From assembly GCA_017404385.1 (NCBI GenBank), contig JAFRCK010000014.1, positions 18,588 through 82,587 on the forward strand: DNA of 64,000 nt. Direction: 5' to 3'. The DNA is from Bacilli bacterium (GTDB taxonomy: Bacteria; Bacillota_I; Bacilli_A; RF39; UBA660). Positions 4,835 through 42,284 of the stretch are shown here, one piece after another; position 1 is the first letter of the stretch; every line of letters starts with the position of its first letter. The notes below the pieces were generated by a model that had not been told where the DNA came from, did not search any database, and saw only the letters and a list, made by a program, of their open reading frames with translations. The position numbers and the translations under genes are program-made.

Positions 4835-5035
4835 ATGAAAACTATTGAAGCTATTGCCATTACTCTAGTTATAATAGGTGCCATAAATTGGGGATTAATT
4901 GGTTTATTTGATTTCAATTTAGTTTCTTTTATATTTGGAGGAATGGATAGTATATTAACAAAAGTAATATATATTTTGGTTGGTATTTCTGGTCTTTTAA
5001 GTATAAAAGTACTTATAGATTTATTTGAAGATTAA
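4835..5035 (+). CDS. Small DUF378-family membrane protein
   Basis: MKTIEAIAITLVIIGAINWGLIGLFDFNLVSFIFGG matches the DUF378 fold (two TM, INWGL motif). RBS aaggagg 6 nt upstream of the ATG at 4835. The track ORF begins at an upstream TTG. Confidence 0.6.
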   Translation: MKTIEAIAITLVIIGAINWGLIGLFDFNLVSFIFGGMDSILTKVIYILVGISGLLSIKVLIDLFED

Positions 5036-5037
5036 AA

Positions 5038-5070
5038 AAGAGGCAAGTATTAATACTTGACCTCTTTTAA
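5038..5070. terminator. Bidirectional hairpin terminator between the DUF378 gene and truA
   Basis: Inverted repeat gaggcaagtat/atacttg(a)cctc with U-runs on both strands. Overlaps the truA stop. Confidence 0.45.
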
Positions 5071-5784: not shown

Positions 5785-5788
5785 ACTA

Positions 5789-6469
5789 TCACCTTATTTC
5801 CCTATATATAGTCTTAATTAATTCATTTATTGAATCTACTTCATCCACATTAATTCCTTTATCTTTAATCTTTTTTATAAAAGTAACAATACTAGGAATT
5901 CTTATATTATTCTCTTTTATTTTATCATAATTATTATATACTTTATATTTATCACCATAATATAATATTTTACCATCATCTATTACAATTAATTCATCTA
6001 TAAATTCATATATATCGTCTATATTAGAACTAACTATAATTATAGTTTTATTAAAAAACTTTTTTAACTTTATAAAAAGTTTTAAAATTTTTACTTTATT
6101 AATTGTATCAAAAGAATCAAGCATTTCATCAAATATAATTATATCTGGATTACATAATAACACTGATGCGATTAATACTTTAGACAATTCACTTTCGCTT
6201 ATTTCATATACACTTTTATTTAAAATATTAATATCTATATCAAGCATCTTTATTATTTCTTCTTTTCTTGCTTCTAATTCTTTTAATCTATATTTATATT
6301 TTTTAACATAATATTCAATTTGTTCTTCTACTATATTCTTTTTTATAATATCATAATTAATAATACCAACTTTTCTTCCTTCTCCAAAACCATTTACAAA
6401 TGTTGTTTTACCGCTACCACTATTTCCACATACACCAATTATTTTTTTCTCATTATTATCTATTTGCAT
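5789..6469 (-). CDS. ABC transporter ATP-binding protein, EcfA2-like (short, degenerate)
   Basis: Walker A GNSGSGKTT. Position downstream of a second ABC ATPase and upstream of truA matches the ecfA-ecfA' context. Confidence 0.55.
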   Translation of the reverse strand: MQIDNNEKKIIGVCGNSGSGKTTFVNGFGEGRKVGIINYDIIKKNIVEEQIEYYVKKYKYRLKELEARKEEIIKMLDIDINILNKSVYEISESELSKVLIASVLLCNPDIIIFDEMLDSFDTINKVKILKLFIKLKKFFNKTIIIVSSNIDDIYEFIDELIVIDDGKILYYGDKYKVYNNYDKIKENNIRIPSIVTFIKKIKDKGINVDEVDSINELIKTIYREIR

Positions 6470-7248
6470 AATTCACCTATTATATCATCCATATTATCAT
6501 ATCTTTTATCTAGTAATTCATACATAATTAGTTTATCAGAAACTTCTATTTCCCATGGTAGCTTAATATTAATATCTTCATTAGTAATTAATTCATCATA
6601 GTTTCCATCAAAGAATACTTTTTTATTATTTATATAAATAATTCTATCTGATAAAGCTAATTCTTTAACATCATTGGTAGTAGAAACAATTGTAATATCT
6701 TTTTGTTTAGATATTTTTTTTATATAATTTAACAATTCATATCTTTTATCAAAATCTAATTTTGAAAAAGCATTATCTAAAAATATAATTTTAGATTCTT
6801 TTAATATAGCTTTTATTAAAGCTACAATTTGATTTTCAGCATATGAAAGTTTTTGAGGAGAATAATTTTCTAGATATAATAAATTAAACTCATCTAACAT
6901 TTTTTTTACTTTATTAATATCAAAAGAACTAACACTCTTTCTATCTTGTAGTATTTCACTCAAAACAGTTTTAGAAAAAAACTCATTATAAGAAGTAATA
7001 AAAGCGCTTTTTTTTGTTATTTCATCAACATTAAATTTATTTACCTGTATACCATCTATTTTTATATTGTTATCTGAAATTAAAGAGCCACTTAGTAATC
7101 TTAATAATGTTGTTTTGCCTACACCATTTTCACCTATAATTGAAACATAACTTCCTTTTTCAATATCTATAGTAATATCTTTAAAAAGGACTTTATTAGA
7201 AGTACTATAATTAATGTTGTGTGCTTCAATTATATTCATACTACTCAC
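6460..7248 (-). CDS. ABC transporter ATP-binding protein, EcfA1-like
   Basis: Walker A GENGVGKTT, ABC signature LSYAENQ, Walker B IIFLDNAFSKLD. Confidence 0.6.
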   Translation of the reverse strand: MSSMNIIEAHNINYSTSNKVLFKDITIDIEKGSYVSIIGENGVGKTTLLRLLSGSLISDNNIKIDGIQVNKFNVDEITKKSAFITSYNEFFSKTVLSEILQDRKSVSSFDINKVKKMLDEFNLLYLENYSPQKLSYAENQIVALIKAILKESKIIFLDNAFSKLDFDKRYELLNYIKKISKQKDITIVSTTNDVKELALSDRIIYINNKKVFFDGNYDELITNEDINIKLPWEIEVSDKLIMYELLDKRYDNMDDIIGELCK

Positions 7249-7277
7249 CTCTAAACAAGTTTATATTATACTTTATT

Positions 7278-7314
7278 ATTCAAAAAAAAGAAATTACTTT
7301 TTAGTAATTTCTTA
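7278..7314 (-). terminator. Rho-independent terminator after the DUF1292-like gene
   Basis: 11-bp stem aagaaattact/agtaatttctt with loop tttt, then an 8-U run on the minus strand. Confidence 0.55.
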
Positions 7315-7563
7315 AATTCCTTCTTGCTTAAGTCTAATTCTTTCATCAAATAATGGAGATAGTTTTCTTAATAATTCAGGATCCTCTACATCTGTTAAAA
7401 CTAATTTTCCATTTTTTATTTCTTGAAAAACTATTTTAATATCATTTTCATCTTCAACATTTAATATTAAATCATATGTATCATATTCAAATAATATATC
7501 TTCTAAAACAAAATATTGTTTACCATTTTTTAAAGTAACTAACTCATATTCTAATTTATCCAT
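7312..7563 (-). CDS. Small acidic protein, DUF1292-like
   Basis: 83 aa, acidic, with a pattern (ELVTLKNGKQYFVLEDILFEYDTYDLIL) reminiscent of the YrzB/DUF1292 family. Confidence 0.35.
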   Translation of the reverse strand: MDKLEYELVTLKNGKQYFVLEDILFEYDTYDLILNVEDENDIKIVFQEIKNGKLVLTDVEDPELLRKLSPLFDERIRLKQEGI

Positions 7564-7574
7564 ATTATTACCTC

Positions 7575-8420
7575 CTACATTAATGATTTTAGGTAAGGAA
7601 ATACATGTCCTTCCATAACATCTTCTGATTCATATATAACGCTAATTACATCTTTTCTTGTTTCATGAGATACAACTTCGTTATCATATTCTTCATTAAA
7701 TAAATCTATATTATTAGGTGTAACTTCTGGTTCTATATTAGTATTATAATCAAAATTATTAATTTCAGGTTCTATATTATTTTCAAAAGTTGGTTCGTTT
7801 AACTCAATTTCATCATTATATTCTTCATCAAATTTTGGTAATTCAAAGCTTTGAGTTTCTTCACTTACTTCTTTTGGAGTTTCCTCTTCAACTTTTTCAC
7901 CAATTTCTTTTAGAACACTATTAAGAGATTCTTTTCTTTTATTATATTCTTGTTCAAGTAATTCATTCATTTTTTCTTTTTCTTCTTCTAATGCTTTAGT
8001 TAAAGTTTCATTACCCTCACAAGCTCTAATAGCATCTTCTATAGAAGAAATTTTTGAATTACATTTAGCAGAAATATCTTTTAATGAATCAATATAATTA
8101 ACTTGTTTACCTTGTTCTTCTAATTTAATACTTTCTATTTTTTCTTTTCTATCTAAAATATCTTGTTCTTTCTTTGAAAACTCTTCAAAAGCTTCTTCTT
8201 TTTCTTTTGTTAATTGTTCCTTAAATTCATTTAATCTATCTTCAAAATCTTTTTCAGTTTGTTCTTTTTGATTACTTAATAATTCTAAATCTGAATCTAA
8301 ACCTGATATTACATTCCCAAGTTTATCAATTACTTCATTATCTTTTTCTAAATATACTTTTAATTCTTCAGGAACAGTTGATTCAAGAACTTCTTCTTCG
8401 ATATTTATTTTTTCTTCCAT
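7575..8420 (-). CDS. Highly acidic coiled-coil protein of unknown function
   Basis: 281 aa, E/K-rich heptad-like segments, no TM. Separated by 11 nt from the downstream gene, suggesting an operon. Confidence 0.4.
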   Translation of the reverse strand: MEEKINIEEEVLESTVPEELKVYLEKDNEVIDKLGNVISGLDSDLELLSNQKEQTEKDFEDRLNEFKEQLTKEKEEAFEEFSKKEQDILDRKEKIESIKLEEQGKQVNYIDSLKDISAKCNSKISSIEDAIRACEGNETLTKALEEEKEKMNELLEQEYNKRKESLNSVLKEIGEKVEEETPKEVSEETQSFELPKFDEEYNDEIELNEPTFENNIEPEINNFDYNTNIEPEVTPNNIDLFNEEYDNEVVSHETRKDVISVIYESEDVMEGHVFPYLKSLM

Positions 8421-8507
8421 AATAAAACACCTCTTCTTATTCTATATATAAAGTATATCAATTATAATAATTTATGTCAATAAAAAGAGTGGAATTAATT
8501 TCCACTA

Positions 8508-9515
8508 TTAAATATCCATGTCTTTTCTATTTACTTCAAATACATATACTTCTTCTGCCATTATAATAAATCTGCTTTGATCATTAGAAACCTTATCATA
8601 AATAATTGGTCTATCTAAATTATTTCTAACATCTAATAATTCTTTAAAGCTTGTTGTTTTAATAACATTCTTTTTATCATCTAATTTTGTTGATGAAGAT
8701 TCAGTAATATAAGTGTCATATTCTTTTAATAATTTAGTAATATATCTATCATATTTGCTTTCTTTTTTAATCCTATTTCTAACTAAATATACTAGTATTA
8801 TTACTGAAACTAAAGCTAAAGACATAAATAATACTGATAAAACAAACATTAATTTATTGATAAACGATTCTTTTGTTTCTCCCATATATGATGATGTTTC
8901 ATTTATATCATTACTTTTATTAATAACTATCATTTGTTTTGATAAAGGTATAGTCATAGCCATTACTTTACTTTGACTAATTTCCTTATCTATACTCTTA
9001 TAATCTACTATATAATCAACAACTAAATTACAATCAGCATTTATACCATAATTTGTTTTAAATTCGTTAGTTAATTTATTATATTTTCCATAATCTATTT
9101 TAAGTTCATCACTTAAATTAATATCTTTAGAATCTTTATAATCATTATTTAATAATTCTTCTTGCTTTGTGTATATAACTTTGTTATTATCATCAGAATC
9201 AGTTATTTTTATATTAGCTACTATTTTTCTGTTAATATTATATTTTTTATCTGTTTCATAATTAATGTTATATTTATAGTTCACTGTTATATTATTGATT
9301 ATTGAAGAAATATATTGCATTCCTTCACCCAAGAATTTTTCACTATAATAATTGTTTTGATTTAAATAAACTTTATAATTAGTACTTCCTGATTCTTTAT
9401 AATTAATTTCACTTATTGTTGTTATTGTATTTGATTTATTATAAAAGAACAAACTAACTAAAGTTAAAACCGCTGTTATAGCAACTAAAATTATTTCACT
9501 TCTATTCTTTTTCAT
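8508..9515 (-). CDS. Bitopic/two-TM membrane protein of unknown function (TM, ~190-aa exposed domain, TM, ~100-aa tail)
   Basis: Hydrophobic segments IILVAITAVLTLVSLFF and LMFVLSVLFMSLALVSVIILVYLV. Lies 11 nt downstream of the signal peptidase fusion gene. Confidence 0.4.
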   Translation of the reverse strand: MKKNRSEIILVAITAVLTLVSLFFYNKSNTITTISEINYKESGSTNYKVYLNQNNYYSEKFLGEGMQYISSIINNITVNYKYNINYETDKKYNINRKIVANIKITDSDDNNKVIYTKQEELLNNDYKDSKDINLSDELKIDYGKYNKLTNEFKTNYGINADCNLVVDYIVDYKSIDKEISQSKVMAMTIPLSKQMIVINKSNDINETSSYMGETKESFINKLMFVLSVLFMSLALVSVIILVYLVRNRIKKESKYDRYITKLLKEYDTYITESSSTKLDDKKNVIKTTSFKELLDVRNNLDRPIIYDKVSNDQSRFIIMAEEVYVFEVNRKDMDI

Positions 9516-9526
9516 TTTATCACCCT

Positions 9527-10654
9527 TTACGAAAATAATTCATTTAACCAAATACTTGGTAACCCTATACTCTTTATTTTTATTTTTACAATTCCTAATA
9601 CATTTTTACCATCAATTGCCCCTTCATCTACTCTTTCATTATTGTCACCTTTTGTGATGTAAAAATCTCTTTCATCTCTTTTAACTATCTTATTTATTCT
9701 ATGAGCAATTAATTTCTTTTCATATTTAAATACTATTACGTCTCCCTCTTTTAACTTTTTTCTTTCTTTAGAATCTAATTTTTTTAAAATTACTACATCA
9801 CCTTTACTTAAGTAATTCTTCATAGAATTAGATCCTATTACTAGAGACTGATATTTAAAGAAACCAGAATTCAATCCAACTAATAACAGTAAAATAAAAA
9901 CTACTATTGTAAATATAATATTTCTTTTTCTCTTATTTTTTGGTTTATCTTGTTCTTTATTCTTATAACTAAATACTACTACACTTAATACTGTAGGTAG
10001 CACTATTAATAATACTGAATTAACATATGGTCCTAAATCAGGAATAATTGGAATTATGAATACATATATTTCAGTAAGTATTCTATACGCTATTGAATTA
10101 TAAAAGTCGCTCTTAATATCATATATTGTCATAAGTACATTTTTAATCAAGCTTCCCATTATTATTAATCCAATAAACTCATATAGATCATCTTTAATTG
10201 ATAAATCATAGGTATTAAAAGCTAATACCACATCTAATGTCACAAATATTAAATAACTTAAAATTATAACTATTTTATTATTATTAGATTTTCTAATAAA
10301 CTGATATCTTAATACTTCACATACTATTATTATTGTTATTGCAGGTATTATATTTTTAACTAAATTAGTAAACGACCAACTATATATTGTTTTCGCATAA
10401 CCAATAAATAATCCTAATAAGTATATCAGTATAAAATATAACATTATATAAAAAAGTGTTTTCTTAAAAATAGGTTTCTCATTTGGAGTTTTATCTATAT
10501 CTATACCTGTTAAGAAATAGATAAGAACACCTATTCCTAAAAAGAATACTAAGTATCTATATTTATCAAATAGATAAGGTACGAAAAAATTAGAAATAAT
10601 AACTAGTAAAACTAATATTTCTATTGCTAATATTTTTTTCACACTACTCTTCAT
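9527..10654 (-). CDS. Polytopic membrane domain (~250 aa, 6-7 TM) fused to a C-terminal SipW-type (S26B) signal peptidase I domain
   Basis: C-terminal ~120 aa contain the Ser box VIGSNSMKNYLSKGDVVILK and His box LIAHRINKI plus GDNN, typical of SipW/archaeal-type SPase I. The N-terminal half is multi-pass hydrophobic. Confidence 0.6.
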   Translation of the reverse strand: MKSSVKKILAIEILVLLVIISNFFVPYLFDKYRYLVFFLGIGVLIYFLTGIDIDKTPNEKPIFKKTLFYIMLYFILIYLLGLFIGYAKTIYSWSFTNLVKNIIPAITIIIVCEVLRYQFIRKSNNNKIVIILSYLIFVTLDVVLAFNTYDLSIKDDLYEFIGLIIMGSLIKNVLMTIYDIKSDFYNSIAYRILTEIYVFIIPIIPDLGPYVNSVLLIVLPTVLSVVVFSYKNKEQDKPKNKRKRNIIFTIVVFILLLLVGLNSGFFKYQSLVIGSNSMKNYLSKGDVVILKKLDSKERKKLKEGDVIVFKYEKKLIAHRINKIVKRDERDFYITKGDNNERVDEGAIDGKNVLGIVKIKIKSIGLPSIWLNELFS

Positions 10655-10741: not shown

Positions 10742-11359
10742 TTAACTACCGCTTGCTTCGTCTTGAATATAATCAATATAAGAATCTAAACCAGTAATTG
10801 TAACATCATTTGTTGGCACATTTGTTGCACTAGCATTATATGTAATAGTTAACTTTAAACTTTTTGTTGCTCCTGCAGCTAATTTGTCTCCATCAGCAAG
10901 AGCTGTTCCATTAGCATAAGTTAGTGTATAAGTTAAATTATTTTTAACTAAAGTACAATCTGCTTCACTTGGAACTGGTGAACCAGTACAAGTAGCTGAT
11001 GAAACATTTGCTAAATGAACTCCGCTAGTATTAATTTTAGCATTAATAGTACCTTCATTAATTACATCAAATGTATAAGATACTGAGTCCCCTGGTGCAC
11101 TTAAAGTAGCTGTTAAGCCACTTAAAGTAGTAGAACTAGAATCTAATACTAACTCTTCTCCTGTTTTTACTTGTGCATATCCAGTTTTTGTTGGAGCAGA
11201 TAAATTAGTAAAATGGATATTCCATGTTGTATTTTTACTAAGCACCTTTGCATTTGAATTAATATTCAATCTTTGAGTTAATGCTGCATATGCAATTGTC
11301 ATTGATACAATACCAACAATCAATAATGCCATTAAAATATTCTTTGTTTTTTCTCCCAT
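10742..11359 (-). CDS. TasA/camelysin-like (Peptidase_M73-like) secreted protein with SipW-type signal peptide
   Basis: N-terminal charged/hydrophobic signal MGEKTKNILMALLIVGIVSMTIAYAAL. Mature region LSAPGDSVSYTFDVINEGTINAKI parallels the TasA/CalY motif LKPGDxxxKxFxxxNxGSLxIK. S/T/A/G/N-rich and beta-rich. Immediately upstream of the SipW-like gene. Confidence 0.45.
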   Translation of the reverse strand: MGEKTKNILMALLIVGIVSMTIAYAALTQRLNINSNAKVLSKNTTWNIHFTNLSAPTKTGYAQVKTGEELVLDSSSTTLSGLTATLSAPGDSVSYTFDVINEGTINAKINTSGVHLANVSSATCTGSPVPSEADCTLVKNNLTYTLTYANGTALADGDKLAAGATKSLKLTITYNASATNVPTNDVTITGLDSYIDYIQDEASGS

Positions 11360-16290: not shown

Positions 16291-16509
16291 TTATCTTTTA
16301 TTCCATATTATACGCCCATGTGTTATATCAACTGGTGATAATTCTAAAACGACTGTATCGCCTGTTAAGATGCGAATGTTATTCATTCGTATTTTACCAG
16401 AAACATGAGCTTCTACAGTATATCCATTTTCTAACTCTACCTTGAATTTTCCTCCAGGTAAAACATCAATAACTTTTCCTTCTACTTCAATAGTATCATT
16501 CTTTGCCAT
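16291..16509 (-). CDS. infA: Translation initiation factor IF-1
   Basis: [29 protein letters not shown]... is canonical IF-1. Confidence 0.92.
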
Positions 16510-17269
16510 TTTCCCACTCTCCTGTCAAGATTATTGGACCATCACTTGTAATTGCGATTGTATGTTCATAATGAGCTGCATTACTACCATCGTAAGTATA
16601 AGCAGTTAAACCATTATCATCAATCTCTATTTCTTCACTACCTAAAGTAAGCATTGGTTCTATTGCTATTACCATACCTTCTCTAAGTTTAGGTCCAGTT
16701 CCTTTTTCACCATAGTTTGGTACATTTGGATCTTCATGAACTTCTGTACCTACACCATGACCAACAAATTCTTTTACAACACCAAGTCCATGTTCTTCTG
16801 CATAAGTTTCCACAGCATTTCCAATATCACCTGTTCTATTTCCTATAACTGCCTTCTTAATACCTTCATATAATGCTTTCTCTGTATGTTCCATAAGATA
16901 TTCATTTTCTTTAGATATTTTTCCCACAGCATAAGTCCATCCAGAATCTCCATGATACCCTTTATAACATGCACCTATGTCTAATGTAATTATATCTCCT
17001 TCTTTTAATTTATAGTCACTAGGATATCCATGTACAACACAATCATTAACTGACATGCATACAGCATTTGGAAATCCTTCACAACCTTTAAAAGATGGAG
17101 TACAACCCTTACTTCTTATAAAATCTTCACATAGTTTATCTAATTCCCTAGTACTAACTCCAGGTTTAATAAATGGTTTTATATATTGATGAGTTTGATA
17201 AACTACATTACCTGCTATTCTAAGTAGTTCAATTTCTCTTGGAGACTTTAAAGTAATCATTTTACTCAT
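16496..17269 (-). CDS. map: Methionine aminopeptidase type I
   Basis: M24A motifs ([16 protein letters not shown]) and position after adk. Confidence 0.9.
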
Positions 17270-17897
17270 CTCCTTTTAATAATTCATCAACATTCTTAAA
17301 TATATCTTCTAAAGTACTATTATTATATATAGTAATTACTTTATCACCATAATAATCTAATAATGGTTTAGTTTCTTTTAAGAATGTATCATATCTATCT
17401 AAAAACGTTTCTTTATTATCATCATTTCTAGATATTAAATTATCACCACATTTAGTGCATTTTAAATCTTTAACTAATTTTTTATTAAAAACACTTCCAC
17501 AGTTTTCACAAATTATTCTGTTTTCAATTCTTTCCACAGCAATTTCTTTATCTATATCAATATGTATAACTTTACTAATTTCAACATTATCATTTTCTTC
17601 ATCTAATTCATCAAGCATTTTTGCTTGAGCTAGTGTTCTTGGAATTCCATCTAATATTATATTAGATTTAGTTTTATTAAACTCTTTTCCAAAAACTTCT
17701 TTAATAATGTCATCTCCTACAAGTGATCCTTTATCTAGAATAGATTTAATTTCTTTACCAATTTCAGTATTGTTCTTAATTTCTTTTCTAAGAAGATCAC
17801 CTGTGGAAATATGTTTGTAGTTATACTTATCCTCAATATATTTAGAAATTGTGCCTTTACCTGCAGCTGGAGCTGCAATTAAAATAATGCACTTCAT
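17262..17897 (-). CDS. adk: Adenylate kinase (zinc-lid type)
   Basis: P-loop IAAPAAGKGT and lid CxxC...CxxC (CENCGSV...CTKCG). Confidence 0.9.
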   Translation of the reverse strand: MKCIILIAAPAAGKGTISKYIEDKYNYKHISTGDLLRKEIKNNTEIGKEIKSILDKGSLVGDDIIKEVFGKEFNKTKSNIILDGIPRTLAQAKMLDELDEENDNVEISKVIHIDIDKEIAVERIENRIICENCGSVFNKKLVKDLKCTKCGDNLISRNDDNKETFLDRYDTFLKETKPLLDYYGDKVITIYNNSTLEDIFKNVDELLKGDE

Positions 17898-19153
17898 TAA
17901 AATCTTCCTTTATATTCTTTTTGATCTAGTACACTTTCAATTTGTTTATATGTTTCTAATGCAACACCAACAACTATTAATAATCCTGTACCACCAATTG
18001 AAATATTAGCATTATCTACACCTGAATATTTTTGAAATAATATTGGTAGTGCTGCGATTATTACTAAGAAAATTGTACCAAATGTTGTAATTCTAAGCAA
18101 TACACTTGTTATGTACTTCTTAGTTTCAGTCCCTGGTCTTACTCCTGGGATATAACCACCATTTTGTTGTAAATTCTTACTAATTTCTTCAGGTCTAAAC
18201 TGAAGTAATGTATATAAATAAGAAAATGCAACTATTAGTGCTATATAAATAAGTAAACCAGCAGTAGTATTATAATTCATATATTTATTAACAAATGTTA
18301 CATATCCTTCATTAGTTACAAATCTAGCAATAACTTGTGGAATACTTATAATTGCTGATGCAAATATTACTGGAATAACGTTTGCAGCATTAACCTTAAA
18401 AGGTATATAAGTTTGTTTTCCACCATATGAACTAGTTGTTTTATTTGCATATTGAATAGGTATTCGTCTTTCAGATTCTGAAATAAATACAACACCTACT
18501 ATAATAGCAAGATAAACTAATATATAAATAATGAATGATATAATTCCGATAAATAGATTTCCATTAGGATCAATAAATGTTGTAAATGCTTCTTTCATCA
18601 TATAAGGTATTGATACTACTATACCAGCCATGATTATTAATGATAATCCATTTCCTACTCCCTTTTGTGAAATTTGATCTCCAAGCCATAGTAAGAATGC
18701 TGTTCCTGCAGTTAATATAATTGCTACCTTAATATAATCAAATGTAGCTGCTTCAGAACCAAGTAATCCAAATGCTAATCCAAATCCTTGAATTAAAGCA
18801 ACTAATATACCAATATATCTTGTAATTCTATTTAATTTTCTTCTTCCAGCATATCCTTCTTTTGCCAAATCTGAAAAGTAAGGAATTATGTCCATTTGAA
18901 GTAATTGAATTACAATTGATGCACTAATATACGGCATAACACCAAGTGCAAATATTGAAGAGTTTTTAAGTGCTCCACCACCAATAACATTTAATAATTC
19001 TAAAAATCCTAATTTACTATTTACATCAGGTACCCCTGGTACCTTAACATTTGTACCAATAATGAATATAGCTAAGGCAGCTAGTGTAAATAGGATTCTT
19101 TTTCTAAGATCCTTATTTCTTTTTGCAAATAAGTCTTTAAACTTTGCAAACAT
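17897..19153 (-). CDS. secY: Preprotein translocase subunit SecY
   Basis: 10-TM protein with SecY signatures (GGGALKNSSIFALGVMPYI). Position between rplO and adk. Confidence 0.92.
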   Translation of the reverse strand: MFAKFKDLFAKRNKDLRKRILFTLAALAIFIIGTNVKVPGVPDVNSKLGFLELLNVIGGGALKNSSIFALGVMPYISASIVIQLLQMDIIPYFSDLAKEGYAGRRKLNRITRYIGILVALIQGFGLAFGLLGSEAATFDYIKVAIILTAGTAFLLWLGDQISQKGVGNGLSLIIMAGIVVSIPYMMKEAFTTFIDPNGNLFIGIISFIIYILVYLAIIVGVVFISESERRIPIQYANKTTSSYGGKQTYIPFKVNAANVIPVIFASAIISIPQVIARFVTNEGYVTFVNKYMNYNTTAGLLIYIALIVAFSYLYTLLQFRPEEISKNLQQNGGYIPGVRPGTETKKYITSVLLRITTFGTIFLVIIAALPILFQKYSGVDNANISIGGTGLLIVVGVALETYKQIESVLDQKEYKGRF

Positions 19154-19154
19154 A

Positions 19155-19598
19155 CTAGATCACCTCTACTTTTCCACCGGCACTCTCTATTTTTTCTTTA
19201 GCTGTTTTTGAAAATTTATGTGCTTTTACTGTTACTTTTTTAGTTAATTCACCATTACCTAAAACTTTTAAACCGTCTTCTAATTTTTTTACTATTCCCA
19301 TTTCTTTTAATAACTCTGGAGTTATTTCTGTTCCATTTTCAAATTTATCTAAATCACTAACATTAATTACTGCATATCTTGTAGCGAATTCATAGTTATT
19401 GAATCCTCTTTTAGCTATTCTGAATACTAATGGATTTTGTCCACCTTCAAAACCAACTCTTACTCCGCCACCACTTCTTGCGTTTTGTCCTTTTTGACCT
19501 CTACCTGAAGTTTTACCATGACCAGAACTTGTTCCTCTACCAACTCTTTTATTACTCTTAATAGAACCAGTAGTATATTTTAATTCATTTAATTCCAT
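19155..19598 (-). CDS. rplO: 50S ribosomal protein L15
   Basis: [34 protein letters not shown]... is canonical L15. Confidence 0.92.
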
Positions 19599-20110
19599 TA
19601 TCCTAAAATCTCCTCTACAGTTTTTCCTCTTAATTTAGCTATATGTTCAGCACTTCTTTGTGAAGTTAATGCTTTCATTGTAGCCTTTGCAGTATTAATT
19701 TTAGTATTTGATCCTAATGATTTAGATACAACATCTTTTAATCCAGCAAGTTCAAGTACTGTTCTAACTGGACCACCAGCTATAATACCAGTACCGGCTT
19801 TAGCAGACTTAAGTAAAACTTTAGCTGCTCCAGCTTGTCCTACTGTATCATGAGAAATAGTACGATTATCAACGATATCAATTTTCTTTACATTTTTAAC
19901 AGCTTGCATTCTAGCTTTTTTAATTGCTTCTACAACTTCGCTAGATTTTCCTGATCCTATACCTACTCTTCCTTTTCCGTCACCAACAGCAACGAATGCA
20001 GAAAAGTGAAGTGTACGACCACCTTTTGTTACTTTTGTAACACGACGAAGTGATAATACTTCATCTTTATAATCATCTTGTTTACGTGGGTTATTTACTT
20101 TCTTTTCCAT
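19598..20110 (-). CDS. rpsE: 30S ribosomal protein S5
   Basis: Canonical S5 ([11 protein letters not shown]...). Overlaps the rplO start by 1 nt with no L30 gene between. Confidence 0.92.
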
Positions 20111-28517: not shown

Positions 28518-28548
28518 AAAAAAAAATAGAAGGATTCCCTTCTATTTT
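28518..28548 (-). terminator. Rho-independent terminator of the WG-repeat paralog A gene, overlapping its stop codon
   Basis: Stem atagaagg/ccttctat with loop attc, followed by an 8-U run on the minus strand. Confidence 0.6.
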
Positions 28549-30299
28549 ATTGAATATAATAAATCACCTGAATAATTATAATAACTATTATATATGAACA
28601 AATAATTTTGGGCTATTTTTATATCATTACTCTTAACTTCTATAGGTAATTCTTCTTTAGTAGATAGATTTAATAACACTTTTTTATCATCTTTTATAAC
28701 CAAAATAAATGGATAATCATGTGTTATATATTCTATACTCTTATATTTAGGTTCAATTATTACTTGATTTTTATTATTGATTAAACCTATCTCATCTTTT
28801 TCATTCTTAATTACAAATAACTCTTGCTTTAAATTTTCCTGAATATTTTTGAATAAATCCTTATCAATAAACTCAACTTTATTATATTTCAAAGGTACTA
28901 TTTCTCTTCCATCTTTATCTATAATTCCATAATTATTATCTTTTGCAACTATCGCATACCCATATTCATTAAAGTCTTCTATATAATCATATAACTGATC
29001 ATTTATTAAATTACCTGTTGAATTAATATAATTATATTTTTTATCACTTATTTCTACAGCCAATTTTTCATTTTTAAATTCTTTTGTTACCGGAATATAC
29101 TCTGAAAATGAACCTTTTAAATCGTTGTAGGTATATATATTATATTTATCTTCATTAGTATCAAAACTATGTGTTTTTTCTAGTAATAATCCTGAACCAT
29201 ATGTATATTCATTATTCTCACTTGTATTTATGACAGTTTTATCCTCTATATTAATATAATCTATATTCATGTCATCTTTAACGCATATTGCTATATTAGA
29301 ATTTACATCATCTACTCTTACTCTTTTATATTTATCTGTTTTATACTTAATATCATCATCTTTAATTATAAAATAAGTACTATTATCTTCTTCTTTATCT
29401 GCTTTTATATAAAATACATTATTATTTAAAACATTTATATCATTTAAAGTATATCCATATAATTCTTTACCAGAATATACATTAACTATTGTTGATGATT
29501 TATTAACCTTTACTTTAGCGTATCTATTTTCTTTATTTGTTTCACTTGTTACTTCAGAAACTTCTACATCTATCTTTTTATCATCTACTTCATCTACTTT
29601 AAAAGTATAAATCTCTTTTCCATCTGTATTTAATATTCCCATTGTTTCATCTTTTTTAAATAAAAATAATTTATTATTATATGATATCTCATCATATTCA
29701 AATCTTGTTATTTCAGATAGTTTATTATCTAAAACTGCATATTTTAAACCACTATTAGTTATTTTAGAAGCTATATAGTAATCATCAAATAAAGATATTG
29801 AATAATAGACACCAAAAGGACTATGAAGTGCTCCTTTTCCATCTAATATTCCATATAGATTATTATCATTTTTTACTATAGCTAATCCTTTATGATATTC
29901 AGTTCCATAAGAATATTTTGCTTTAACAACAATTGTACCTTTATCATCTATATAACCTACTTTTTTATTTTCTTCTATCCTTATTAAATTAGATGTATTA
30001 GCTTTACTATTATTTATAAAAATATACATAAACAAAATAGAAACAAATGCAAAAGATATTATTGGAAATATTATAGATGCTTTTTTAAATGAGACTTTAC
30101 TATTTTTAGCTGGTATATCCTTTATTTTATCATCTAATATTACTATATTATTATCAGTAATAATTGGCTCATTTGATTTTGTTAAAGGTGGAATATCCTT
30201 AATTCTATCATCTAAAATAATAATATTATTAGAAGGGTCTTCAAATGGTAAACTAGAAAAAGAAGCATCATTAATTTCTTGATTGTTTAACTCATTCAT
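28542..30299 (-). CDS. Type II membrane protein with cytoplasmic tandem IILDDRIKDIP motif and extracellular WG-like (KWG/PF14903-like) repeats; paralog A
   Basis: About 75-aa N-terminal region with two copies of (I/V)ILDD(R/K)IKDIP, then TM ASIIFPIISFAFVSILFMYIFI, then repeats such as KVGYIDDKGTIVVKAKYSYGTEYHKGLAIVKNDNNLYGILDGKG. Strong paralogy with 40530..42284. Confidence 0.5.
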   Translation of the reverse strand: MNELNNQEINDASFSSLPFEDPSNNIIILDDRIKDIPPLTKSNEPIITDNNIVILDDKIKDIPAKNSKVSFKKASIIFPIISFAFVSILFMYIFINNSKANTSNLIRIEENKKVGYIDDKGTIVVKAKYSYGTEYHKGLAIVKNDNNLYGILDGKGALHSPFGVYYSISLFDDYYIASKITNSGLKYAVLDNKLSEITRFEYDEISYNNKLFLFKKDETMGILNTDGKEIYTFKVDEVDDKKIDVEVSEVTSETNKENRYAKVKVNKSSTIVNVYSGKELYGYTLNDINVLNNNVFYIKADKEEDNSTYFIIKDDDIKYKTDKYKRVRVDDVNSNIAICVKDDMNIDYINIEDKTVINTSENNEYTYGSGLLLEKTHSFDTNEDKYNIYTYNDLKGSFSEYIPVTKEFKNEKLAVEISDKKYNYINSTGNLINDQLYDYIEDFNEYGYAIVAKDNNYGIIDKDGREIVPLKYNKVEFIDKDLFKNIQENLKQELFVIKNEKDEIGLINNKNQVIIEPKYKSIEYITHDYPFILVIKDDKKVLLNLSTKEELPIEVKSNDIKIAQNYLFIYNSYYNYSGDLLYSIK

Positions 30300-30386: not shown

Positions 30387-33300
30387 TTATTTATTTTTAA
30401 AAATCTGTGGTTTATAACGTATAATTATCAATACGCCTAGAATAGCAATTATTCCTATGAATATTAAGCCATATTTAATCTTTTCCATACCAGTTGATAT
30501 AGTTACTATTAACTCAGCACTTGCGCTTGGTTTCTTAACTATTTTTTCAGTTTTTGGTTTATTCGCAATAATTGAATTTCCAACTACTGAACCATCTTCA
30601 CTGACATAGAATACAGCTACATTTAATTCTTTTTTAGGTAATTCCATTCCATTTGGTGCTTTTGTTTCAATTATTATATATTGACCTTCTTCTAAGTAGT
30701 AAACTGTAGCACTACCATTCTTAGTCTTAATTACCTTATTTGTACTATTCTTATCTACCTTATAGAAGATTTTATCTCCACTTACTTCTTCAGTAACTGT
30801 TAAATCTTCATATTTCTTATTTTGATTTAATTTTTGAAGTTTATATTCTCCTCCATCAATTAAATTATTATAATCATCATATTTATAGAAAGTAAATGGT
30901 GTTGGTTTATTAACAAGTTCTTTTAATGTATCAACTATTTCACTTTCTTTTTCTATAGTTACCATTATGAATCTATCTTCTTCTTTTTCAGGTAAACTAT
31001 AACCTTTTGGAGCTTTTACTTCTTCTATAATATAACAATGACCATAATCTAAATATTGAATTAATATTTCACCTGCTTTTATCTCAACCTTTTCATTATT
31101 TTGATTAACACTATTATCAAAATTTGCCCATGTATCAACATATTCTGAATAAGTAAGTGAAGTATCAATATCGCTACATTTATCATTTTCTTTATCAGTA
31201 CATGTAATTACTTTATCCGTGTCCCTTATTTCTCTATTATCATATACTCCATCTCGTATAGTTTTTAATTTTAGAAGTTCTTTTGGTTGAGCCATTGGAG
31301 ATAAATTCTTATCACAAGTTGTACCTTCATAAATTCTAAATTCTGCTCCCTCTAATAAATTTCCAGAATCATCATATTTTCTTATTAATAATGAAGTTGG
31401 TTTATTAGGAACATCTATTTCATCAACTTGTACTGTTTCAGTAGATACAGTAAATGAGCTTTCAGCATTTCTTCCTTTTGGTAATCTATATCCTTTTGGA
31501 GCTACTGTCTCTAGTAAAACATAATTATATCCACCTTGTAGATATCTAAATACTAATTTACCATGATATGGATGTAAATCAGTAACATTATCAGTTTCTT
31601 TTTCTATATTAAGTATTGCTCTATATACTTCAACATTAGGATCTTCTTCATCACCAGTTATAATTCCTCTTTGATTAAATTTAATTAGTGTCATTCCAGC
31701 AGCTTGTCTTTCAGCAGCATTAACATAATCCCCAGGGTGACATTCTTGACCTTCTGGACATCTATATACTTCAAATGTAGTTGTTTCATCATCTATTAAA
31801 TAACCATATTTGCTATCTCTCTTTTCAAAAGTAACTCTAGATGGTTTATCTAATATTTCTACTGTTGTTGATGGTTTTGGTTGATCTTGATCATCACAAC
31901 ATGATAAATCTATTTCTCTAGTTCTTTCTTCTTCAGTTTCTGGTAATATAAATACTGATTTACCAGTAACAGCAACTTCTTCTATATAGTATTTTCTTCC
32001 TCTACATAGATGAGTTAAATGTATATGTCCTCCACAAGTATGTAATTCTTGTGTTATAGTTAAATCACTTATTAATGAACTATCTGTGCCTTCAGGAATA
32101 TATCTATATTCTGAATAACTTTCTTCAGTCTTACAAGTTCCTACATCTCCAACTTTAGCAAAATCAACATATACTTTTTCATTATTTTGTCCTCTATAAT
32201 AAACCTTGAATGTTATTCCATCAAACGCACTTATTTCTTCTTCATTTTCAAATTTTACTTCTTCATTTGGAATTACATTTCCATAGAAATCTTTCTTAGT
32301 AAATTCTACTTCAGTTGGTCTATTATCCAATGTTTGAGTAGCAACAGTTGTTATTTCACATACATTATTACCTAGTTCATCTTTACCTGTAGATTGACTT
32401 GTTGAACATTTATCAATAGTAAATGAATAACTATTTGTGTTGTTACCATACTTAGGTGAATAGAATCCATAACATATATTACTTGATGGACTTGTACATG
32501 TATCTTCACAACAACAATCGTTTTCCTTAATTGTATATTTACCTACTGGTAAATGATATACATATATTTTTCTTGAACTATTTAAGTTCAATGTTGTAGT
32601 TGGAGTTCCAGTTACTCCATCTATATTATTTCCAGCATATTCATATACGCCATCAGATGTTTTGATAACACTTACTGCATTACCATTACTATCATATATT
32701 GTAAATGGTATTTTCTTTAATTCTTCTGTTGACATTGTTTTCCAAATGTCATCTAAACCATTTTCTTCACTAACTGTTTTAGTAAATTCAAATTCTGTTT
32801 TATAGTTTTTATATTTTTCAGCATCATTAAATGATTTTCTTGATTTACTAGAATCATTAACAATAAATGTCTTAGTTGTTTCTTCACCAAATGTATGGTA
32901 ATCAAGTGGTTTAGTTTCTGTTACTTTATAAGTTTCAGCAGGAAGTTTTACTATACATACTTCACCTATATTTACGCCATTAGATTCATCTGTTGTACTC
33001 GAAACTAATTTAGATGCTTCTGATTTATTTGTTGTTTCACCATCATATATATAGCACCCTTTATTACCATTTTCATTTTCTTTTTCTGATTTTACTTTTA
33101 TATATTGAGTAGTATCATTTTCACCAACATAAGAAGCAATAAATTCAGCTCCTCCTTTAGGAGTTTCACCATCTTCTAATACCTTATAAAAATTCATTAC
33201 TAATGGCGTATTAATTAATTTATTACAATCTGATGATGATGTACATGTTTTTCCTTTTATACTAGTTTGTGGTTTAATGCCTGTTATTTGTCCATTTTCA

Positions 33301-35078
33301 AATGCATAACCATCTAACGATCTTAATTCCTTTGCTTTATAAGATGTATCATTATTTATTTTAGGAATTTGTACTATACAAATTCTTCCATTAGAATCAG
33401 TCTTTAATGTTGAACCTGAAGTTGTTTCATCTCTATATATATAGCATCCATCATCATCAGGTGTAGAATATACTCTAACATAATTTGATGATCCAGTTGC
33501 CTGAACTTTAAATTTAATATCAGATAATGGTTCCCCCTTCTCATTTTCTTTATAGAAAGAAATATAATAAGGTGAGTTTGTTACAGTCACTTTTTTACAA
33601 GTAGAAGTACTTCCAGTTACTATCTCTCTACATGTACCATCTATTTTATACTTTGTACTTTCTGCACCAGACCAAGATTCTTTTGCATAATATTTCGTAC
33701 CATTATTTAGTCCAGAGAATTTTGCAATTCCACTAGCATTAGTTTGTTTAGTTTGTAATACAGTTCCACTACAATTGTTTGTAGAATCATCATCACCATC
33801 ATCTTCATACAAGTTAAAAGTTACTCCTTCAAGATTATTACCTTGACCATCAGTTTTTGTAATAGAAATACAGCCATTATTTTCAATATCATTAGTTGCC
33901 GTTACTCTCTTATAGTATACTTCAACAGTACTATCATACTTATAACCTGATTGTGAACCTAGATTAATAACTCCATACACACATTTTCCATTTAAATCTG
34001 GATCTGAAGATGGACAGGCATTAGATTCGTTCTCAGTATCAGTTGTAGTTGTGACATTATACTCGACCGTATAATAAGTATCGGTACCTGTTTTTTTTGC
34101 AGGTTTTTCCCAAATACAATATTTACCTTTTGGATCGAGTAAAGCTTCATATTCTACATTACTACCTGAACCAGTTCTTTTTAGTCCTAAATAATAATGG
34201 CTTCCCGAATGATATCCAGTGTTAGCATTATTTGATGCAGCAACTAAATGAGAAGCATCATGAAGATCCTCACATTTTCCGTTATTTGCTTTATATAATT
34301 TAAATATTCTTTCTTCACCATCATCATCAGCTGAATCCTCATAAGCTTTAACTACATCTATATATACTTTTGGTTCTTCATAAGTCCAAAATATAATATC
34401 TTGATAATTTGTTGATGATGTATCATTGCTTGTATAATATACTTTAAAATTTGCAAATTTCTTTTTGTCTAATACCAATCCGTTTTCAGCATAATGTTCT
34501 GATAATTGATTTTGCATAACTTGTAAACCATCTAATTGAGCAGCAGTTAATCCTCTATCTCCTTGGTATCCTCTACCATGATATGCCAAAGCTATAAGAG
34601 CATGTGAATATGCATATAATTGATTATCACTCTCTGTCTCAGAATCAGTCATTATATTATTGCTTTTAAATAACCCTATTATTGTATCCTTATTTTCTTC
34701 CCAACCAGGACCACCATATAAGAAATATAAAAAATACTTATGTCTAGTTTCATTCCATTTTATTAAATCACCATCATTGTTATATGATTCTGTATGACCT
34801 GTAATAGTTTGATTACCTGGTGCTTTTTCATTAGGGTCTAGACAAAATGCATTATTTGTTCCTAAATCATTTGGAACATTTGTAACGCTAAATACTGGTG
34901 TCCATCCTTTAGGATCTCTATGACCATATTTAATTTGAGAAATTTTAGTATTGTGATATAAATATCCTGTAATAGTTTCATCTTCTGCATTAACACTACC
35001 AATATTTAATGCAAATGCAGTAATTAATAGACCTATTATTGTAATACCTAAAATTATAAATTTTAATTTCTTTTTCAT
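30387..35078 (-). CDS. Giant (1563 aa) cell-surface adhesin: signal peptide, candidate thioester (TED-like) N-terminal domain, ~8 Cna-B/SpaA-like stalk domains, C-terminal TM anchor (no LPXTG)
   Basis: Signal MKKKLKFIILGITIIGLLITAFALNIGSVNA. Motif NNAFCLDPNEKAP (Cys79) and downstream NYQDIIFW, reminiscent of TED CxQ/TQxAIW motifs. Repeated modules with G(A/V)xFxIY(E/K) and Y(x)LxExxAPxGY(x)LP signatures. C-terminal hydrophobic helix plus RYKPQIFKNK. Confidence 0.6.
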   Translation of the reverse strand: MKKKLKFIILGITIIGLLITAFALNIGSVNAEDETITGYLYHNTKISQIKYGHRDPKGWTPVFSVTNVPNDLGTNNAFCLDPNEKAPGNQTITGHTESYNNDGDLIKWNETRHKYFLYFLYGGPGWEENKDTIIGLFKSNNIMTDSETESDNQLYAYSHALIALAYHGRGYQGDRGLTAAQLDGLQVMQNQLSEHYAENGLVLDKKKFANFKVYYTSNDTSSTNYQDIIFWTYEEPKVYIDVVKAYEDSADDDGEERIFKLYKANNGKCEDLHDASHLVAASNNANTGYHSGSHYYLGLKRTGSGSNVEYEALLDPKGKYCIWEKPAKKTGTDTYYTVEYNVTTTTDTENESNACPSSDPDLNGKCVYGVINLGSQSGYKYDSTVEVYYKRVTATNDIENNGCISITKTDGQGNNLEGVTFNLYEDDGDDDSTNNCSGTVLQTKQTNASGIAKFSGLNNGTKYYAKESWSGAESTKYKIDGTCREIVTGSTSTCKKVTVTNSPYYISFYKENEKGEPLSDIKFKVQATGSSNYVRVYSTPDDDGCYIYRDETTSGSTLKTDSNGRICIVQIPKINNDTSYKAKELRSLDGYAFENGQITGIKPQTSIKGKTCTSSSDCNKLINTPLVMNFYKVLEDGETPKGGAEFIASYVGENDTTQYIKVKSEKENENGNKGCYIYDGETTNKSEASKLVSSTTDESNGVNIGEVCIVKLPAETYKVTETKPLDYHTFGEETTKTFIVNDSSKSRKSFNDAEKYKNYKTEFEFTKTVSEENGLDDIWKTMSTEELKKIPFTIYDSNGNAVSVIKTSDGVYEYAGNNIDGVTGTPTTTLNLNSSRKIYVYHLPVGKYTIKENDCCCEDTCTSPSSNICYGFYSPKYGNNTNSYSFTIDKCSTSQSTGKDELGNNVCEITTVATQTLDNRPTEVEFTKKDFYGNVIPNEEVKFENEEEISAFDGITFKVYYRGQNNEKVYVDFAKVGDVGTCKTEESYSEYRYIPEGTDSSLISDLTITQELHTCGGHIHLTHLCRGRKYYIEEVAVTGKSVFILPETEEERTREIDLSCCDDQDQPKPSTTVEILDKPSRVTFEKRDSKYGYLIDDETTTFEVYRCPEGQECHPGDYVNAAERQAAGMTLIKFNQRGIITGDEEDPNVEVYRAILNIEKETDNVTDLHPYHGKLVFRYLQGGYNYVLLETVAPKGYRLPKGRNAESSFTVSTETVQVDEIDVPNKPTSLLIRKYDDSGNLLEGAEFRIYEGTTCDKNLSPMAQPKELLKLKTIRDGVYDNREIRDTDKVITCTDKENDKCSDIDTSLTYSEYVDTWANFDNSVNQNNEKVEIKAGEILIQYLDYGHCYIIEEVKAPKGYSLPEKEEDRFIMVTIEKESEIVDTLKELVNKPTPFTFYKYDDYNNLIDGGEYKLQKLNQNKKYEDLTVTEEVSGDKIFYKVDKNSTNKVIKTKNGSATVYYLEEGQYIIIETKAPNGMELPKKELNVAVFYVSEDGSVVGNSIIANKPKTEKIVKKPSASAELIVTISTGMEKIKYGLIFIGIIAILGVLIIIRYKPQIFKNK

Positions 35079-35104
35079 AATAAACTCCTTTCTTTATTTA
35101 TATA

Positions 35105-35140
35105 TCTAGAAATATACTATTCAAATAGTATATTTCTAGA
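35105..35140. repeat. 36-bp perfect palindrome (17-bp arms, 2-nt centre) between the two giant genes, overlapping the stop of the upstream gene
   Basis: tctagaaatatactatt-ca-aatagtatatttctaga. Seen directly. Not followed by a U-run on the minus strand. Confidence 0.7.
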
Positions 35141-39679: not shown

Positions 39680-39812
39680 TTATAATACTATTTTTTTCAT
39701 TTTTTTTCAAGAAAAATAACAAAAAAAAGGAAAAAAGGAGAACTCCATAATTAAGCATTTACTTTTTTTATTTGTTGTGTTAAAATTTGATTGAATAATA
39801 GGGAGATAGATT

Positions 39813-40503: not shown

Positions 40504-40538
40504 TAAAGATACATCATTTGATGTATCTTTTATTTTAA
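40504..40538. terminator. Bidirectional terminator between the 229-aa gene and the WG-repeat paralog B gene
   Basis: 11-bp stem aagatacatca/tgatgtatctt with loop tt, followed by ttatttt. Overlaps the stop of the minus-strand gene. Confidence 0.55.
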
Positions 40539-42284
40539 TTCATATAATATTTTTCCCTGATAGCTATAATAACTATTATTACATATAATACTATTTTGAG
40601 TAATAATTACTTTTTCAGTACCTAATTCAATTGGAATTTCTTCCTTTTTAGCTAAATCAATTAACACTCTATTATTATCTTTAATGCCTATTATAAATGC
40701 ATATTCATCAGTTATAAATTCAAATTTATCATATTCATTTTCTAATAATATATTATTTTTACTATCAATAAGTCCATATTTATTATTATCATCTTTAATA
40801 ATAAATAATTCTTTTTTTAATAAATCTTTTAAATTATTAAAGAATATATCATTAATTAGTTCTATATCCATATAATTTGCTTTTACAACATCTTTTCCCT
40901 TTTTATTAATAATTCCATATTTCCCATTCTCTTTAATTTTTGCATAACCTGAATTATTAAAATCTGTTACCTCTTCATACCACTTGTTATTTATTAATTT
41001 ACCTTTTTCATCTAAATAATTCTTTCCATATTCAGTTTCAATAGCTAATCTTTTATTGCTATATATTCCTGAAATTGGTTTATATTCATTAAATAAATCT
41101 AGTTCTTTTTTTGAAGAAATAATTCTATAATTACTATTATCATTTTCTAATAATAAACCAGAACCATATGTATAAATAGCTTCTTTATTCTCATTAATAA
41201 TGCTTTGATCATTTAGATTAATATAACTAACACTACTATCATCTTTAATACAAATTGCTATATCTGAATCAACATCATCAACCTTAATTAGTTTATATTT
41301 ATCAGTTTTAAGTTTTACTTTACCATCTTTAATTACTATGTATGTATTGTTACCAAATTCATTTTCTGTTTTTAAGTAAAAGACATTGTTGTCGGATACA
41401 AATATATCTTCTAAAGTATAACTATAAACATCTTTTCCTGTGGATAGATTAACTATTAAAGAAGATTTATTTATTTTAACTTTTGCATATCTATCTTTTG
41501 ATTCTAAGTTAGATACATTCGATAATTCTATTTCAATTTTTTTGTCATCCACTTCATCTACTTTAAATGTATATATTTCATCACCATTTGAATCTAAAAT
41601 ACCCAACGTTTCACCAGATATAAATGAATAATACCCATCTTTTGAATACGTGATATTATCATACACAAATCTAGTTAACTCTGATAATTTATTATTAAGC
41701 AAAGCGTATTTTAAACCATTATTTGTTATTTTAGAAACAATATAAGTACCTTCTTTATAATCCATTGAATAATATGTTCCAAATGGTACTTTTGATACAC
41801 CTTTACTATTTAGTATTCCTATTAAATTATTATCATTTTTTACTATTGCTAAACCATTATGATATTCAGAACCATATGCATATTTAGGTTTAACAACTAT
41901 GGTTCCATCATTATCTACATAACCTATTTTTTTATTTTCTTCAATTTTTATTAGATTAAATGTATCTGCCTTGCTATTATTAATAAATATATACATAAAT
42001 AGAATTGATACAAATGCAAAAGTAAATACCGGAAAAATAATTGATGTTTTTTTAAATGATATCTTGCTATTTTTAGCAGGTATATCTTTTATTCTATCAT
42101 CCATAATAATTAAATTATTATCAGTTACAATTGGTTCTATTGATTTAGTTAAAGGTGGAATATCTTTAATTCTATCATCTAAAATAATTATATTATTAGA
42201 AGAGTCTTCAAATGGTAAATCCGATAATGAATTAGTATGTTCTAAATGATCATCAGAAAATGGTATATTATCAAATTCATTCAT
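40530..42284 (-). CDS. WG-like-repeat type II membrane protein, paralog B of 28542..30299
   Basis: Same architecture and motifs (IIILDDRIKDIPPLTKS, IIMDDRIKDIPAKNSK, TM SIIFPVFTFAFVSILFMYIFI, KIGYVDNDGTIVVKPKYAYGSEYHNGLAIVKNDNNLIGILNSKG). About 60-65% identical by eye to paralog A. Confidence 0.5.
   Translation of the reverse strand: MNEFDNIPFSDDHLEHTNSLSDLPFEDSSNNIIILDDRIKDIPPLTKSIEPIVTDNNLIIMDDRIKDIPAKNSKISFKKTSIIFPVFTFAFVSILFMYIFINNSKADTFNLIKIEENKKIGYVDNDGTIVVKPKYAYGSEYHNGLAIVKNDNNLIGILNSKGVSKVPFGTYYSMDYKEGTYIVSKITNNGLKYALLNNKLSELTRFVYDNITYSKDGYYSFISGETLGILDSNGDEIYTFKVDEVDDKKIEIELSNVSNLESKDRYAKVKINKSSLIVNLSTGKDVYSYTLEDIFVSDNNVFYLKTENEFGNNTYIVIKDGKVKLKTDKYKLIKVDDVDSDIAICIKDDSSVSYINLNDQSIINENKEAIYTYGSGLLLENDNSNYRIISSKKELDLFNEYKPISGIYSNKRLAIETEYGKNYLDEKGKLINNKWYEEVTDFNNSGYAKIKENGKYGIINKKGKDVVKANYMDIELINDIFFNNLKDLLKKELFIIKDDNNKYGLIDSKNNILLENEYDKFEFITDEYAFIIGIKDNNRVLIDLAKKEEIPIELGTEKVIITQNSIICNNSYYSYQGKILYELK

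Follow-up and report, generated by a model that had tools for sequence, protein, structure and literature searches.

A gene for a 1563-amino-acid (aa) secreted surface protein was found in a 64,000-nt stretch of Bacilli bacterium DNA (contig JAFRCK010000014.1, positions 18,588 to 82,587), which is called the window here. Its coordinates and those of the surrounding features are given in Table 1. The open reading frame (ORF) is considered a real gene and not a chance one because it runs for 4.7 kb in DNA of ~27% GC, has an orthologue at 58% identity and matches Pfam SpaA over the whole protein with an expect value (E) of 2.4e-37. The orthologue was found in L001, a locus from the sheep-ileum metagenome-assembled genome 'Bacilli bacterium RGIG5784', and its public database entry is annotated only as 'hypothetical protein'. 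No record of the exact 1563-aa protein was found in the assembly collection. Only two hydrophobic segments were seen by hydropathy, at residues 3-31 and 1531-1560. The first forms the signal peptide, with a KKK n-region and a hydrophobic core, and cleavage is predicted between VNA and ED. The protein is probably a fibrillar adhesin of the thioester/isopeptide (TIE) type, exported via Sec to the surface of an uncultured low-GC bacterium of the class Bacilli from the ruminant gut. An initial annotation of this DNA had proposed a thioester-domain adhesin on a SpaA/CnaB isopeptide-type stalk, and this core claim held up: the N-terminal domain passes Pfam TED_2 and matches the thioester-domain fold, Cys79 and Gln226 are invariant, and the stalk gives SpaA matches and contains Lys/Glu/Asn triads.

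Residues 32-237 are a member of the thioester-domain (TED) family with a class-I-like fold. The initial annotation had suggested a comparison of the N-terminal region with the TED models of Pfam, and this gave a divided answer. Once excised, the domain passed TED_2 (PF20610), for which the curated gathering cut-off is 27 bits: residues 31-238 scored 32.3 bits and residues 1-400 scored 29.3. The classical TED model (PF08341) did not match the adhesin, and TED_2 was the only one of the TED models to do so. There was no NCBIfam model for the N-terminal domain, no match to the N-terminal 370 residues in a word-indexed homology search and nothing in a metagenome scan with the TED. Of 1.84 billion representatives, a full HMMER scan with the N-terminal region picked out just four as relatives. 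With a profile of the query's own family, all four database matches were found to carry PF20610. The relatives from metagenome-assembled genomes of Clostridia found through this profile scored 52-79 bits on TED_2, compared to ~30 for the query, and a more distant one (L007) scored 30.7.

The fold was then modeled. AlphaFold2 gave a predicted local distance difference test (pLDDT) score of 32 from the single sequence and, with a 10-row alignment, a pLDDT of 75.3 and a predicted template modeling score of 0.71. The model consists of a beta-barrel together with a bundle of three helices, as the TED superfamily requires. Its secondary structure runs from strands through the helical bundle to two strands, and no beta-sandwich is inserted ahead of Gln226, which matches the layout described for class I TEDs (PMC6194298). 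In a fold comparison the model matched all solved TEDs, with a sequence identity of just 7-15%, and the best Foldseek match was Cpa (E 3.4e-5). A single-sequence search of the Protein Data Bank (PDB) with the N-terminal domain returned one chance antibody match (E 0.79) and no thioester-domain structure, and a PDB search with the whole protein returned nothing at E <= 0.01.

TEDs have been described by three motifs: [YFL]C-Phi-zeta, which holds the Cys; a helical TQxxPhiW; and a weak beta-strand motif, Phi-Q-zeta-Phi-Phi, which holds the bonded Gln (PMC4450167; PMC6194298). TQxxPhiW, formerly written TQxA(I/V)W, is carried by a helix situated between that Cys and that Gln, and its own Gln is unbonded and dispensable (PMC4450167; PMC6194298). 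Cys79 is present at the codon where the initial annotation had placed it. It is the sole Cys of the domain, its context is NAFCLDPNEKAP, and in the model it falls within a beta strand (strand 46-48). A Gln about 150 residues further on, in NYQDIIFW, had also been pointed out, and this is Gln226, 147 residues after Cys79; in the model, the last strand of the domain begins at it or directly after it. It had been read as an 'offset' TQxA(I/V)W, and this part of the claim was mistaken. The offset was seen because the Gln was compared with the wrong motif; Y-Q226-D-I-I fits Phi-Q-zeta-Phi-Phi with no offset. Across seven family sequences from Bacilli and Clostridia (26-67% identity), Cys79 and Gln226 were among 14 invariant positions. 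The query and its relatives have in common the motifs A[FY]CL.P, Y..Y..PGW, an [ST]H helix motif and Q....W at the domain end. From these data, we infer an internal thioester between Cys79 and Gln226.

Judged by sequence, the stalk is built of about nine immunoglobulin-like (Ig-like) modules (D0-D8), at least six of which are of the SpaA/CnaB type. The borders of D1-D8 and of the extra module D0 were set by motifs and by alignment with orthologues. D1, D2, D6, D7 and D8 passed the Pfam SpaA (PF17802) cut-off of 23.1 bits, and no match was obtained for D0, D3 or D5. By hhalign, D3 matched D2 with 98% probability (E 1e-13) and D5 gave a weak match to D7 (E 4.7e-4). Each module has a Lys in the first strand, a Glu in YxxxE and an Asn in the last strand (Asp in D5). 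All three residues are conserved in the orthologues for D1, D2 and D4-D8, whereas in D0 and D3 this holds for the Lys and Glu. The first choices of last-strand Asn in these two modules were not conserved, and N396 (D0) and N758 (D3) were assigned by eye in their place. In D3, N741 was rejected for this reason, and N758 fits a last-strand x-N-x-x-TEF motif that is conserved in homologues. When 10 sequences from four module types were aligned, the K, E and N columns were the only invariant ones. The profile of this alignment matched solved isopeptide domains of pilins and of CnaB2, the SpyCatcher parent, with FxKxD and YxxxE aligned. An intramolecular isopeptide bond is therefore expected in each module on the strength of these motifs.

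The initial annotation had counted about eight modules, which agrees with D1-D8; D0, a ninth Ig-like module, had been missed. The literal signatures that it quoted (Y-x-L-x-E... and G-x-x-F...) are present, although each was found in only four modules. No tandem repeats were found in the DNA of the gene and, therefore, the stalk modules are old. A stalk made by recent tandem repetition was rejected on this ground and since the modules are akin only at the profile level (hhalign). The number of modules differs among homologues.

Table 1. Features of the adhesin gene and its surroundings, in window coordinates
Feature	Residues	Position	Strand	Basis and remarks
Adhesin gene, secreted surface protein	1563 aa	30387..35078 (including stop codon)	minus	ORF with ATG start; L001 orthologue
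Ribosome-binding site AAGGAG, 7 nt 5' of ATG		35085..35090	minus	Direct sequence reading
Sec signal peptide	1-31	34986..35078	minus	Hydropathy and sequence
Thioester domain, class-I-like topology	32-237	34368..34985	minus	Pfam TED_2
Predicted thioester cysteine	Cys79	34842..34844	minus	F-C-L-D fits [YFL]C-Phi-zeta; invariant in 7 family sequences
Predicted thioester glutamine	Gln226	34401..34403	minus	Y-Q-D-I-I fits Phi-Q-zeta-Phi-Phi; invariant in 7 family sequences
D0, Ig-like, candidate triad K244/E324/N396	238-399	33882..34367	minus	Unrecognized by Pfam; 4 conserved Cys
D1, SpaA-type, K408/E467/N501	400-503	33570..33881	minus	PF17802 42.3 bits; triad conserved
D2, SpaA-type, K510/E584/N623	504-625	33204..33569	minus	PF17802 28.5 bits; triad conserved
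D3, SpaA-type, K632/E721/N758	626-760	32799..33203	minus	hhalign to D2; no Pfam match alone; K, E conserved
D4, probable SpaA-type, K767/E852/N919	761-921	32316..32798	minus	PF17802 20.2 bits, below 23.1; triad conserved; cysteine cluster
D5, probable module, K928/E1034/D1077	922-1079	31842..32315	minus	No Pfam match; triad conserved
D6, SpaA-type, K1086/E1190/N1225	1080-1227	31398..31841	minus	PF17802 26.3 bits; triad conserved
D7, SpaA-type, K1234/E1353/N1390	1228-1392	30903..31397	minus	PF17802 42.2 bits; triad conserved
D8, SpaA-type, K1399/E1471/N1506	1393-1510	30549..30902	minus	PF17802 37.7 bits; triad conserved; no Cys
T-I-S-T-G pentapeptide, candidate variant sortase motif	1526-1530	30489..30503	minus	Conserved in homologues
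Hydrophobic segment (1536-1553) and basic tail RYKPQIFKNK		30390..30473	minus	Hydropathy, sequence
Terminator-like hairpin, then T-run, right after adhesin stop codon		30350..30373	minus	Consensus scan only
Upstream partner gene, co-oriented, SdrD_B domain	1520 aa	35117..39679	minus	38-nt gap to adhesin
Promoter-like site upstream of partner gene		39710..39682		Consensus scan only
Divergent protein, N-terminal membrane anchor, no Pfam match	229 aa	39813..40502	plus	54% identity to divergent ORF at same L001 position

The adhesin is also rich in cysteine. Its 33 Cys make up 2.1% of the protein, compared to 0.73% in the other proteins of the window (binomial P ~1e-7), and 31 of the 33 are conserved in orthologues. 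D4 contains a CCCxxxCxSPSxxxCYG cluster (residues 855-871) that is conserved in the homologues P0001, P0002 and P0004. Conserved cysteine pairs probably add disulfides to the stalk, and the D4 cluster might act as a disulfide knot or bind a metal.

Taken together, these features suggest how the adhesin might work. After removal of the signal peptide, residues 32-237 would fold as the class-I-like thioester domain, in which the internal thioester is predicted between Cys79 and Gln226. Attack on this bond by a nucleophile of the target (typically the amine of a lysine) would leave the adhesin covalently linked to its putative ligand via Gln226. The ~nine Ig-like modules would hold the thioester domain away from the cell, stabilized by the isopeptide bonds expected from the Lys-Glu-Asn(Asp) triads and probably by disulfides between cysteine pairs. 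The (T/N)ISTG sequence, the hydrophobic segment and the basic tail would retain the protein at the surface, where they would serve as a membrane anchor or, alternatively, as a sortase signal of a non-canonical kind.

The adhesin was compared with known systems. CpTIE from Clostridium perfringens (PDB 5a0g), SfbI-TED (5a0l) and PnTIE (5a0n) have, like the adhesin, a signal peptide followed by an N-terminal TED and then isopeptide-type domains. These class I TIE proteins also have their Cys in [YFL]C-Phi-zeta and their Gln in Phi-Q-zeta-Phi-Phi, a Cys-Gln spacing of ~150 residues and no beta-sandwich before the Gln. In contrast to them, the adhesin, at 11-13% identity, has no TQxxPhiW, no PF08341 match and no LPXTG, and its stalk is much longer and cysteine-rich. 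The PF20610 proteins of gut Clostridia (L002, L004, L005; P0007) have in common with the adhesin A[FY]CL.P, YYLYGGPGW, the [ST]H central helix and the Q....W domain end, and they too carry SpaA modules directly after the TED. Their identity to it is 26-29%. The adhesin's subfamily is a handful of Bacilli sequences and differs from the Clostridia proteins in that its loop region is longer and D0 is added. For the stalk, CnaB2 of FbaB and the SpaA-type pilin domains (PF17802) have the same FxKxD Lys, YxxxE..AP.GY Glu and last-strand Asn/Asp, whereas several of the adhesin's modules have 30-70-residue insertions and conserved cysteine pairs, and its bonds are predicted ones. An adhesin of Mobiluncus mulieris (5u6f) contains disulfide, isopeptide and ester cross-links. 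It is actinobacterial and LPXTG-anchored, and has been described as having an ester rather than a thioester. The adhesin is a divergent addition to the known class of TIE/thioester adhesins, and the only unusual features are its non-standard anchoring signal and its many conserved cysteines.

Other arrangements were seen among the relatives. P0003, a 666-aa protein from an ENA metagenome, has a TED of the same subfamily in an internal position, between DUF285 repeats and Flg_new/choline-binding-like repeats; therefore, the domain is mobile from one architecture to another. The TED_2 proteins of L006 and L007 (Lachnospiraceae) have ~100 extra residues inserted after the helical bundle and before the conserved Gln, a class-II-like layout, and the Pfam TED_2 family thus seems to span both TED classes. 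In L002, the ORF of the Clostridial TED_2 adhesin (4857..10607) ends in a sortase-like ...TLSTC... motif, which could reflect an adhesin-sortase fusion or read-through.

Several observations weigh against the reading of the protein as a TIE-type adhesin. TED_2 was not reported when all 1563 aa were scanned with Pfam, SpaA being the sole match there, and its margin over the cut-off is thin (2-5 bits). The TED_2 model also does not reach Gln226. Two profile searches of the PDB with the domain gave no solved structure, and D0, D4 and D5 are not confidently SpaA-type. Finally, the helical TQxxPhiW motif, which contacts the thioester in solved TEDs, is absent from the domain. By position in the model, its place on the central helix appears to be taken by S158-H-A-L-I-A, a site where the family consensus is [ST/C]H. 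This absence and the strong divergence noted above (7-15% identity to solved TEDs) could be explained by a TED-like fold without a thioester, so that the adhesin would be non-covalent and Cys79 a free thiol or a residue with some other role. We consider this unlikely since Cys79 and Gln226 were kept invariant across wide divergence. In addition, mutagenesis has shown that the Gln and Trp of TQxxPhiW are unneeded for bond formation, the motif is not universal, and the bond was present in all twelve of the TEDs tested (PMC4450167).

Another possible explanation is that the protein is a tip or shaft subunit of a pilus, similar to Cpa, and is polymerized with its 1520-aa neighbor by a pilus-specific sortase. 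The top Foldseek match is indeed the pilus tip adhesin Cpa/Spy0125 of Streptococcus pyogenes (2xi9/2xic), which combines a thioester with isopeptide Ig-like domains, two large surface-protein genes lie in tandem, and the NCBIfam SpaH/EbpB pilin model gave a partial match. However, that match scored 56 against a cut-off of 95, and the adhesin, unlike Cpa, has neither pilin features nor a sortase context: a YPKN-type pilin motif and LPXTG are lacking, and a sortase gene is absent from the window and the homologous loci. A protein of 1563 aa with nine stalk modules would also be a fibril by itself. The pilus subunit was rejected on these grounds as highly improbable, and a thioester adhesin with its own stalk is the preferred reading.

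The C-terminus reads ...SAELIV-TISTG-MEKIK-YGLIFIGIIAILGVLIII-RYKPQIFKNK. The initial annotation had described a transmembrane (TM) anchor in place of LPXTG. A regular-expression search of the adhesin gave no LPXTG-like match, which agrees with that description, but the difference may have been overstated, as a conserved (T/N)ISTG stands at the position of a sortase motif and the TIGR01167 (LPXTG_anchor) score is borderline. The C-terminus would be either a plain membrane anchor or, somewhat short of an even chance, a variant sorting signal.

The second option would replace only the membrane-anchor part of our reading: a sortase would cleave between the T and G of (T/N)ISTG, a non-canonical cell-wall sorting signal, and link the adhesin to peptidoglycan. 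We hold this as a tentative possibility. SAELIV(T/N)ISTG is invariant in three homologues and is the best-conserved stretch of the C-terminal region. TISTG is the only xxxTG near the C-terminal end, and its TG is 33 residues from the C-terminus, ahead of the hydrophobic segment and basic tail and inside the 17-45-residue rule for sortase substrates (PMC4155245). Two Clostridial TED_2 relatives (L006 and L007) have AKTG- and SPRTG-type sorting signals at their C-termini, in which they differ from the adhesin, each with a TM segment and a basic tail behind it. On TIGR01167 (cut-off 15.9 bits), with the alignment starting at S-T-G, P0002 passed with 16.6 bits, whereas the query scored below the cut-off with 13.8 and P0001 gave no match. 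Position 2 of the pentapeptide also lacks the Pro. No sortase (TLxTC) was found in the 64-kb window or among the called genes of two homologous loci (L001 and L013), and neither the rest of the window nor a metagenome scan yielded a further protein with a (T/N)ISTG-type signal. A similar sequence, NVQTG of C. difficile CbpA, was uncleaved by SrtB in vitro (PMC4155245).

The lineage appears to be walled because a Ddl-like gene was recognized in the window, by eye from its translation, and choline-binding proteins lie beside the P0002 gene, which is in favor of the sorting signal. A wall-less (Mollicutes-like) host was rejected as an explanation of the anchor, since these two findings and EzrA (by Pfam) argue against it. 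A broader idea, which we regard as doubtful, is that the TIE-type adhesins of this lineage have left LPXTG and sortase A, through a membrane anchor or a new (T/N)ISTG motif, with stalks that perhaps join isopeptides, many disulfides and the CCCxxxC cluster. If this were true, thioester, isopeptide and disulfide cross-links, all covalent and intramolecular, would be combined in one Firmicute protein.

To our knowledge, thioester adhesins are the only bacterial adhesins that bind their targets covalently, and they are a source of protein-ligation tools. The adhesin described here extends this family to an uncultured ruminant-gut Bacilli lineage. Its divergent sequence indicates that a TED can do without the TQxxPhiW helix motif but needs the Cys and the Gln. 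For the anchoring and stabilization of such fibrils, leads come from the (T/N)ISTG signal and from the 31 conserved cysteines; they would be variations on a known theme and not a new mechanism.

The window is chromosomal: upstream it carries PolC, EzrA, RNase J and FtsK, and the S10 ribosomal operon lies downstream. The 1520-aa partner and the adhesin are probably in the same operon. The partner is secreted, and SdrD_B is its only recognized domain (aa 1036-1134), with ~1000 N-terminal and 250 C-terminal residues outside it. Its counterpart in L001 (60% identity) is adjacent to the TED gene, and linkage to the SdrD_B partner is seen on the P0002 contig as well. The adhesin, the SdrD_B partner and the divergent 229-aa gene occur together in L001, in a different neighborhood, and these three genes appear to form a conserved cassette.

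Some minor features were observed around the cassette and elsewhere. A perfect hairpin with a 16-bp stem and no T-run (35105..35140) overlaps the 1520-aa gene's stop codon and lies just before the ribosome-binding site of the adhesin; a role in mRNA processing or stability is possible. Two WG_beta_rep proteins of ~585 aa flank the cassette (28542..30299 and 40530..42284, both minus strand), the first with an internal membrane segment. Further away, a signal-peptidase-I-like domain fused to a polytopic N-terminal region (9527..10654, minus) lies beside a 205-aa secreted protein (10742..11359, minus), and by eye this pair is reminiscent of SipW/TasA. In L013, several surface-protein genes lie beside the P0002 adhesin (5305..9318 and 16316..20029); they encode a prepilin-type protein (GFTLVE) with Flg_new, a choline-binding-repeat protein and a cysteine-rich protein of >1238 aa with 31 Cys.

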